Positions 1 through 248 of a stretch of 248 nucleotides of DNA are shown piece after piece. The stretch's first letter is position 1. Every line of letters begins with the position of its first letter. The stretch is from Escherichia coli (GTDB taxonomy: Bacteria; Pseudomonadota; Gammaproteobacteria; Enterobacterales; Enterobacteriaceae): assembly GCF_003334785.1 (NCBI RefSeq), contig NZ_QOWV01000092.1; one strand, given 5' to 3'. The notes beneath the pieces were generated by a model, which ran no database searches, had not been told where the DNA came from, and saw only the letters and a program-made list of their open reading frames with translations. The translations under genes and the position numbers were made by a program.

Positions 1-248
1 TTTCATCTCCAGCTTTTCCAGAACAAGCTTTCGCAATGGTAAATTTTGATCCAGTAAGCACGGTTTTGGCCTTTTCGCCATTCTGTTGGCTCGGTTATTA
101 GCATCAACAGCTTTGTAATAGCGTCTGCCCCGATTACGCTGAACTTCACGTGAGATCGTCGAAGGACTGCGATTCAGCGCAGTAGCTATCGCACGAATGC
201 TCATTTTGGCTGACAAACCAGCTCGTATCTCCTCGCGCTCAGACAGTG
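1..248 (-). CDS. insI: IS30-family transposase (InsI-like), internal fragment, partial at both ends. Codons occupy plus-strand 1-246 read on the minus strand; 247-248 are the last two bases of the preceding codon. The start codon lies beyond position 248 and the stop codon beyond position 1.
   Basis: Seen in sequence: the reverse complement read from its third base gives 82 codons with no stop. Plus-strand frame 1 stops at taa 40-42, frame 2 at tga 47-49, and frame 3 at tag 99-101. Established knowledge (recalled, not aligned): the peptide matches the N-terminal region of E. coli IS30 transposase InsI, roughly residues 60-142 of the ~383-aa protein, with no mismatches I can detect from memory. 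Confidence 0.92.
1..248 (-). mobile_element. Internal segment of an IS30-family insertion sequence (IS30 itself or a near-identical relative). Terminal inverted repeats and target-site duplications are not in the window.
   Basis: Inference from the CDS call: the IS30 transposase gene fills most of the ~1.2-kb element, so a window wholly inside the transposase gene is wholly inside the IS. No IS ends are visible to confirm whether the element is complete. Confidence 0.88.
133..201 (-). other. Helix-turn-helix DNA-binding motif within the transposase N-terminal domain (peptide SIRAIATALNRSPSTISREVQRN).
   Basis: Seen in sequence: a short amphipathic helix-like stretch (SIRAIATALN), a turn (RSPS), and a second basic stretch (TISREVQRN). 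Established knowledge: IS30 transposases carry N-terminal HTH motifs used for recognising the inverted repeats and target sites. Exact motif boundaries are my estimate, not a domain-search result. Confidence 0.6.

Follow-up and report, generated by a model that had tools for sequence, protein, structure and literature searches.

Sequencing and mechanistic work on IS30 date back to the 1980s, and the element was first described on derivatives of phage P1. The DNA analyzed here almost certainly belongs to IS30 itself, the E. coli insertion sequence that names the IS30 family. Transposition of IS30 follows a copy-out-paste-in route, in which the transposase links both ends of the element via a 2-base bridge and replication then yields either a minicircle or an (IS30)2 dimer with an IRL-IRR junction (PMC9333248). 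This junction doubles as a strong transposase promoter, Pjunc, and targets near-palindromic hot spots or another IS30 end, with 2-bp duplications as the result (PMC9333248). Within the transposase, InsI, a helix-turn-helix domain recognizes the subterminal part of the 26-bp inverted repeats, and the C-terminal DDE (rve) core performs the chemistry (PMC9333248, PMC7780238, PMC9330008). The mechanism and the N-terminal DNA-binding role are taken from this literature.

Apart from IS30 itself, two groups of elements provide the closest comparisons. Other members of the IS30 family (NF033563) share the N-terminal helix-turn-helix domain(s), the DDE/rve core, short terminal inverted repeats and copy-out-paste-in transposition (PMC9333248). 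Elements of the IS3 family (IS600, IS911, ISEc52) have copy-out-paste-in transposition and a junction promoter in common with IS30 (PMC9330008, PMC9333248), and they adjoin it physically in many genomes. They nevertheless form a separate family, whose transposase is of the two-ORF, frameshifted type, and they lack sequence similarity to the DNA studied here; they represent its context rather than its identity.

The subject of this analysis is a single stretch of 248 nt (the window). All 248 nt are identical to E. coli IS30 (ISfinder IS30), with which the window also shares its reading frame and HTH_38 motif; it is the same element. Relative to the K-12 copies there are zero differences inside the 248 nt, and only flanking DNA could tell one copy from another. 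IS30 is a well-known and ordinary element, of whose coding sequence the window is an invariant segment.

Identity of the window and the transposase segment it encodes

A megablast search of 5,426 complete E. coli genomes aligned the window over positions 1-248 at 100% identity (E=4e-126) to genes annotated 'IS30-like element IS30 family transposase'. As the reference copy we used the IS30 of E. coli SK1144 (locus L001), whose boundaries were set from the imperfect inverted repeats at its termini and a 2-bp AC duplication. This copy is 1,221 bp long, with inverted repeats TGTAGATTCAATTGGTCAACGCAACA... and ...TGACAGATTGAATCTACA at its ends and the AC duplication on its flanks. When mapped on it, the reverse complement of the window corresponds to nt 241-488 of the element (Table 1). 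The intact copies of K-12 MG1655, namely IS30A/insI1, IS30C/insI2 and IS30D/insI3, each contain the window as an exact substring, as do seven other annotated IS30 copies (10 sampled in all).

Both the identity and the internal position are well beyond chance. The window is almost certainly an internal piece of the IS30 transposase gene, displayed as its antisense strand, and no result speaks against this identification. The first-pass annotation had likewise taken it for an internal IS30 fragment, a reading borne out by the megablast identity, the mapping and the exact K-12 matches.

Table 1. Features of the 248-nt window and surroundings of the ten sampled IS30 copies that carry it exactly
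Feature or copy	Sequence	Positions	Strand	Remarks
Internal IS30 segment, nt 241-488 of element	Window	1..248	(-)	Wholly within insI / ORF-A (IS30 nt 63-1214); from identity and mapping
ORF, InsI residues 61-142, LSEREEIRAGLSAKMSIRAIATALNRSPSTISREVQRNRGRRYYKAVDANNRANRMAKRPKPCLLDQNLPLRKLVLEKLEMK	Window	1..246	(-)	Frame from position 246; sole stop-free frame among six
Helix-turn-helix codons (Pfam HTH_38), InsI residues 61-98	Window	133..246	(-)	Motif starts 3 residues upstream of window
Basic linker between HTH and catalytic core, InsI residues 99-142	Window	1..132	(-)	Also start of the NF033563-covered region
L001	E. coli SK1144	3426..2275 (transposase CDS, minus); 3001-3248 (window)		Inside IS600, adjoining sat toxin gene
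L002	E. coli O157:H7 PV15-279	2743-3488		Cut at IS30 nt 746 beside IS1203 (IS3-like), prophage region
L003	E. coli plasmid p120899_146	1-457 and 2418-3493 (two inverted copies)		Ends at nt 1071 beside ISEc47; annotated frameshifted
L004	Strain 214-4			Inside ISEc52
L005	E. coli M217	2266-2267 / 3489-3490 (flanks)		Inside IS600, adjoining galF and capsule locus
L006	Salmonella Typhi plasmid R27	2275-2324 (annotated overlap)		Overlapped by 3' end of Ig-like-domain gene
L007	Klebsiella plasmid pK29			No listed gene around; left flank with IS3-like motif
L008	K-12			Inside IS911A of prophage CP4-6
L009	K-12			In ydbA autotransporter pseudogene, beside IS2D
L010 (IS30D)	K-12, KpLE2	2960-4180		Between IS911B and IS600 fragments
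ATTAAAAAA(A/G)GC left flank	L001, L004, L005, L007	3489-3508
ATTAAAAAA(A/G)GC left flank	L008	3022-3041
ATTAAAAAA(A/G)GC left flank	L010	4181-4200

The residues encoded by the window fall in the N-terminal DNA-binding fragment described in the literature, and they include the main helix-turn-helix. HTH_38 matched residues 1-38 of the window translation (E=5.1e-17) and residues 58-98 of the full 383-aa InsI (E=1.3e-18). Residues 29-79 of the fragment also align to positions 1-50 of NF033563, the NCBIfam model of the IS30 transposase. The fragment scores low against this profile (21.7 bits, cutoff 80) because it covers no more than 50 of the 267 positions in the profile, and the full protein of an identical copy scores 276.3 bits against the same cutoff. 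In full InsI, the rve (DDE) core spans residues 229-320, which begins ∼260 nt beyond window position 1, and there is a weak HTH_32 match at residues 90-173. Full-length copies in which the window occurs do carry the rve catalytic domain. A literature search on HTH1/HTH2 returned nothing specific to IS30. Two alternative ORFs were listed in the window, one of 48 codons on the minus strand, which starts with GTG and is out of frame, and one of 21 codons on the plus strand; we regard both as mechanical and without support.

Abundance and insertion contexts of window-identical copies

The window is abundant in E. coli, with 7,335 matching places in 3,532 of the 5,426 complete genomes (median 2 places per positive genome, maximum 23). 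Chromosomes account for 6,300 of these places and plasmids for 1,035 (14%). The best match was ≥99% identical in 3,882 of 3,928 E. coli records. In the plasmid collection, 1,109 records from at least 10 genera matched, 1,055 of them at ≥99% identity; the genera comprise Escherichia, Citrobacter, Enterobacter, Klebsiella, Salmonella, Raoultella, Shigella, Aeromonas, Serratia, Leclercia and others. The phage collection (50,697 records) contained no match to window positions 1-248. Across the thousands of E. coli and plasmid matches, nearly all at ≥99% identity, the window shows no lineage-diagnostic SNP. With the same 248 bases present in thousands of copies and in many genera, the host, replicon and insertion site are not recoverable from them. 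The window carries no information on host, replicon, intactness of the copy or the gene interrupted.

To see what surrounds such copies, we refer to a sample of ten (L001-L010), every one of which carries the window exactly (Table 1). Five of the ten are nested in or between IS3-family elements, and eight are full length, at 99.7-100% identity. Among these eight, six are flanked by 2-bp duplications (AC, AC, GG, GC, AC, CT), the exceptions being the M217 copy (GC/AC) and K-12 IS30D (AC/GT). Two claims of the first-pass annotation are upheld by these data. It had held that the significance of the element depends on its insertion context, and window-identical copies are indeed found nested, gene-disrupting, intergenic or truncated. 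It had also held that an internal fragment cannot decide between chromosome and plasmid, and the region is present on both, as counted above, and in many genera.

Several of the sampled loci have features of their own. In PV15-279, the prophage region that holds the IS30 copy lies between a truncated gene for the tail tape measure and a gene of the VgrG/Pvc8 family. In plasmid p120899_146, two inverted IS30 copies lie ∼2 kb apart and bracket ISEc47 (IS66-like); this arrangement is composite-like but consists of nothing except IS debris. In R27, the annotation of the Ig-like-domain gene extends into IS30, covering 50 nt at the right end of the element, and the IS therefore supplies the present 3' end and stop codon of the gene. 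This suggests that the insertion truncated or re-tailed the Ig-like-domain gene.

The two exceptions to direct duplication were also inspected at their flanks. IS30D is bordered by AC on the left and GT on the right, with no direct duplication; its left flank is of the IS600 type, and its right flank is the reverse complement of an IS911-type left flank. Such a pattern would be expected after recombination or inversion between two IS30 copies, each inserted in an IS3-family element. In M217, the flanks read GC/AC, as compared to AC/AC in the otherwise equivalent SK1144 insertion, and the flanking IS600 differs from that of SK1144 by a few bases. Conversion or independent insertion could account for these flank differences.

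Nesting in IS3-family elements was then gauged on a larger scale. A 120-nt probe for the IS600::IS30 left junction was ≥80% covered in 1,284 of the 5,426 E. coli genomes. These make up roughly one third of all IS30-bearing genomes, so that IS30 is found nested within an IS3-family element more often than in any other single context. The motif ATTAAAAAA(A/G)GC, located near the orfA end of IS3-family elements (IS600, ISEc52, IS911), immediately precedes IS30 copies repeatedly, and its A-run resembles the frameshift region of the IS3 family. The motif is either a natural hot spot for IS30 or the mark of one ancestral nested insertion that has spread widely.

With the full element as query, 3,394 of 4,350 matching records (78%) had a place covering ≥80% of it. 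Of 25 records sampled at even spacing from those matching the full element, 19 had ≥90% coverage, and IS600 was annotated under the match in 7 of these 19. Given the junction-probe, coverage and replicon counts, our best guess for the window is an intact chromosomal copy, quite possibly inside another IS that is dead. Taking the population as the only prior, the copy is most likely full length and located on an E. coli chromosome, and it is quite possibly nested in an IS3-family element. The 'simple neutral insertion', which the first-pass annotation had named as the case that would refute it, would be the commonest outcome to expect, as the usual site of IS30 is within an IS3-family element that is already dead.

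A rival reading is that the copy behind the window is no longer intact and transposition-competent but a remnant of IS30, whether truncated, interrupted or dead in some other way. Remnants with the exact window do exist, as illustrated by the PV15-279 copy, cut at nt 746, and the p120899_146 copy, which ends at nt 1071 and is frameshifted. The coverage data point the same way, in that only 3,394 of 4,350 matching records reach ≥80% of the full element, and a plasmid of E. coli 042 matches window positions 73-248 only. On the other hand, 8 of the 10 sampled window-bearing copies are full length and nearly or wholly identical, and the reading frame of the window is intact, although an intact copy and a remnant look alike within the window. 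We therefore consider a remnant unlikely, while granting it an appreciable chance, and retain an intact copy as the better reading.

The copy behind the window might also occupy a consequential, undescribed site, where it activates or silences a neighboring gene, forms an arm of a composite transposon or contributes to an active IR-IR junction. Consequential IS30 insertions exist, one example being the uspC-IS30-flhDC insertion reported to mark chlorine-tolerant, wastewater-adapted E. coli (PMC5007776). Nothing in the window points to one, and we judge such a site very improbable for this copy.

Element ends, regulatory sites and the antisense strand

The window lies far from both ends of the element. 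From the mapping, the left inverted repeat is expected 215-240 nt past window position 248, and the right inverted repeat is expected to end 733 nt past window position 1. The 26-bp terminal inverted repeats are present in related full copies, and the 26-bp left-end repeat of IS30 has no match in the window with three mismatches allowed. A repeat search of the window found no inverted repeats and a single direct repeat (13 nt, two copies, 85% identity), which is at chance level. Scans of both strands of the window for sigma-70 promoter-like and intrinsic-terminator-like sites gave zero hits for each, and the same scan across the whole element detected nothing inside IS30. An Rfam search of the window at E≤1 gave no matches, and RNA folding against shuffled controls (z=-1.30 and +0.53, the latter for the plus strand) revealed neither strand to be unusual.

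Collectively, these results show that the window is without cis-acting parts; the ends, the junction promoter and the target duplication are all elsewhere. They agree with two further statements of the first-pass annotation. One was that no element boundary is visible, and both the left-end repeat and inverted repeats are indeed absent from the window. The other concerned the features it had listed as informative, namely terminal repeats, duplications and outward promoters, which sit at or near the ends of the element and hence outside the window (PMC9333248, PMC9330008).

It can also be asked whether the plus (antisense) strand of the window has a function of its own, either as part of an IS30 antisense RNA that damps translation of the transposase or as a small antisense ORF. 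The antisense promoter of IS30 has been placed in the central part of the element, at nt 730-760 (PMC9330008, a review). Transcripts from it run to lower coordinates, and would read the plus strand of the window if they extended more than ∼240 nt. However, the promoter itself lies outside the window, and each of the three plus-strand frames is interrupted by stops, the only ORF there being the one of 21 codons. Nor does the plus-strand RNA fold better than shuffled versions, and the window lacks an Rfam match and any promoter- or terminator-like site. These data argue against a separate antisense function, which we regard as improbable.

The least tenable alternative, that the window comes from a different IS30-family member such as a resistance-associated relative, appeals to the large size of the family and to a minority of diverged matches (25 plasmid records at 90-95% identity, 8 at 80-90% and 9 at 60-80%, including a Klebsiella plasmid at 94.7%), but its probability is close to nil. 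Relatives would differ at many positions (nucleotide identity is ≤94.7% in the diverged plasmid matches), whereas the window is 100% identical over 248 nt to copies annotated 'IS30-like element IS30' and to K-12 IS30A, C and D, and the exact K-12 match refutes this alternative.

What this analysis offers is not a discovery but a frank acknowledgment that the window is uninformative. In practice the check is of negative value: the window is best masked as a repeat and left aside. The same 248 bases are so widespread that no analysis of the window can recover its insertion site. If the flanks were known, a chromosomal copy would be expected, often nested in an inactivated IS3-family element, and the outcome of the insertion would be neutral.
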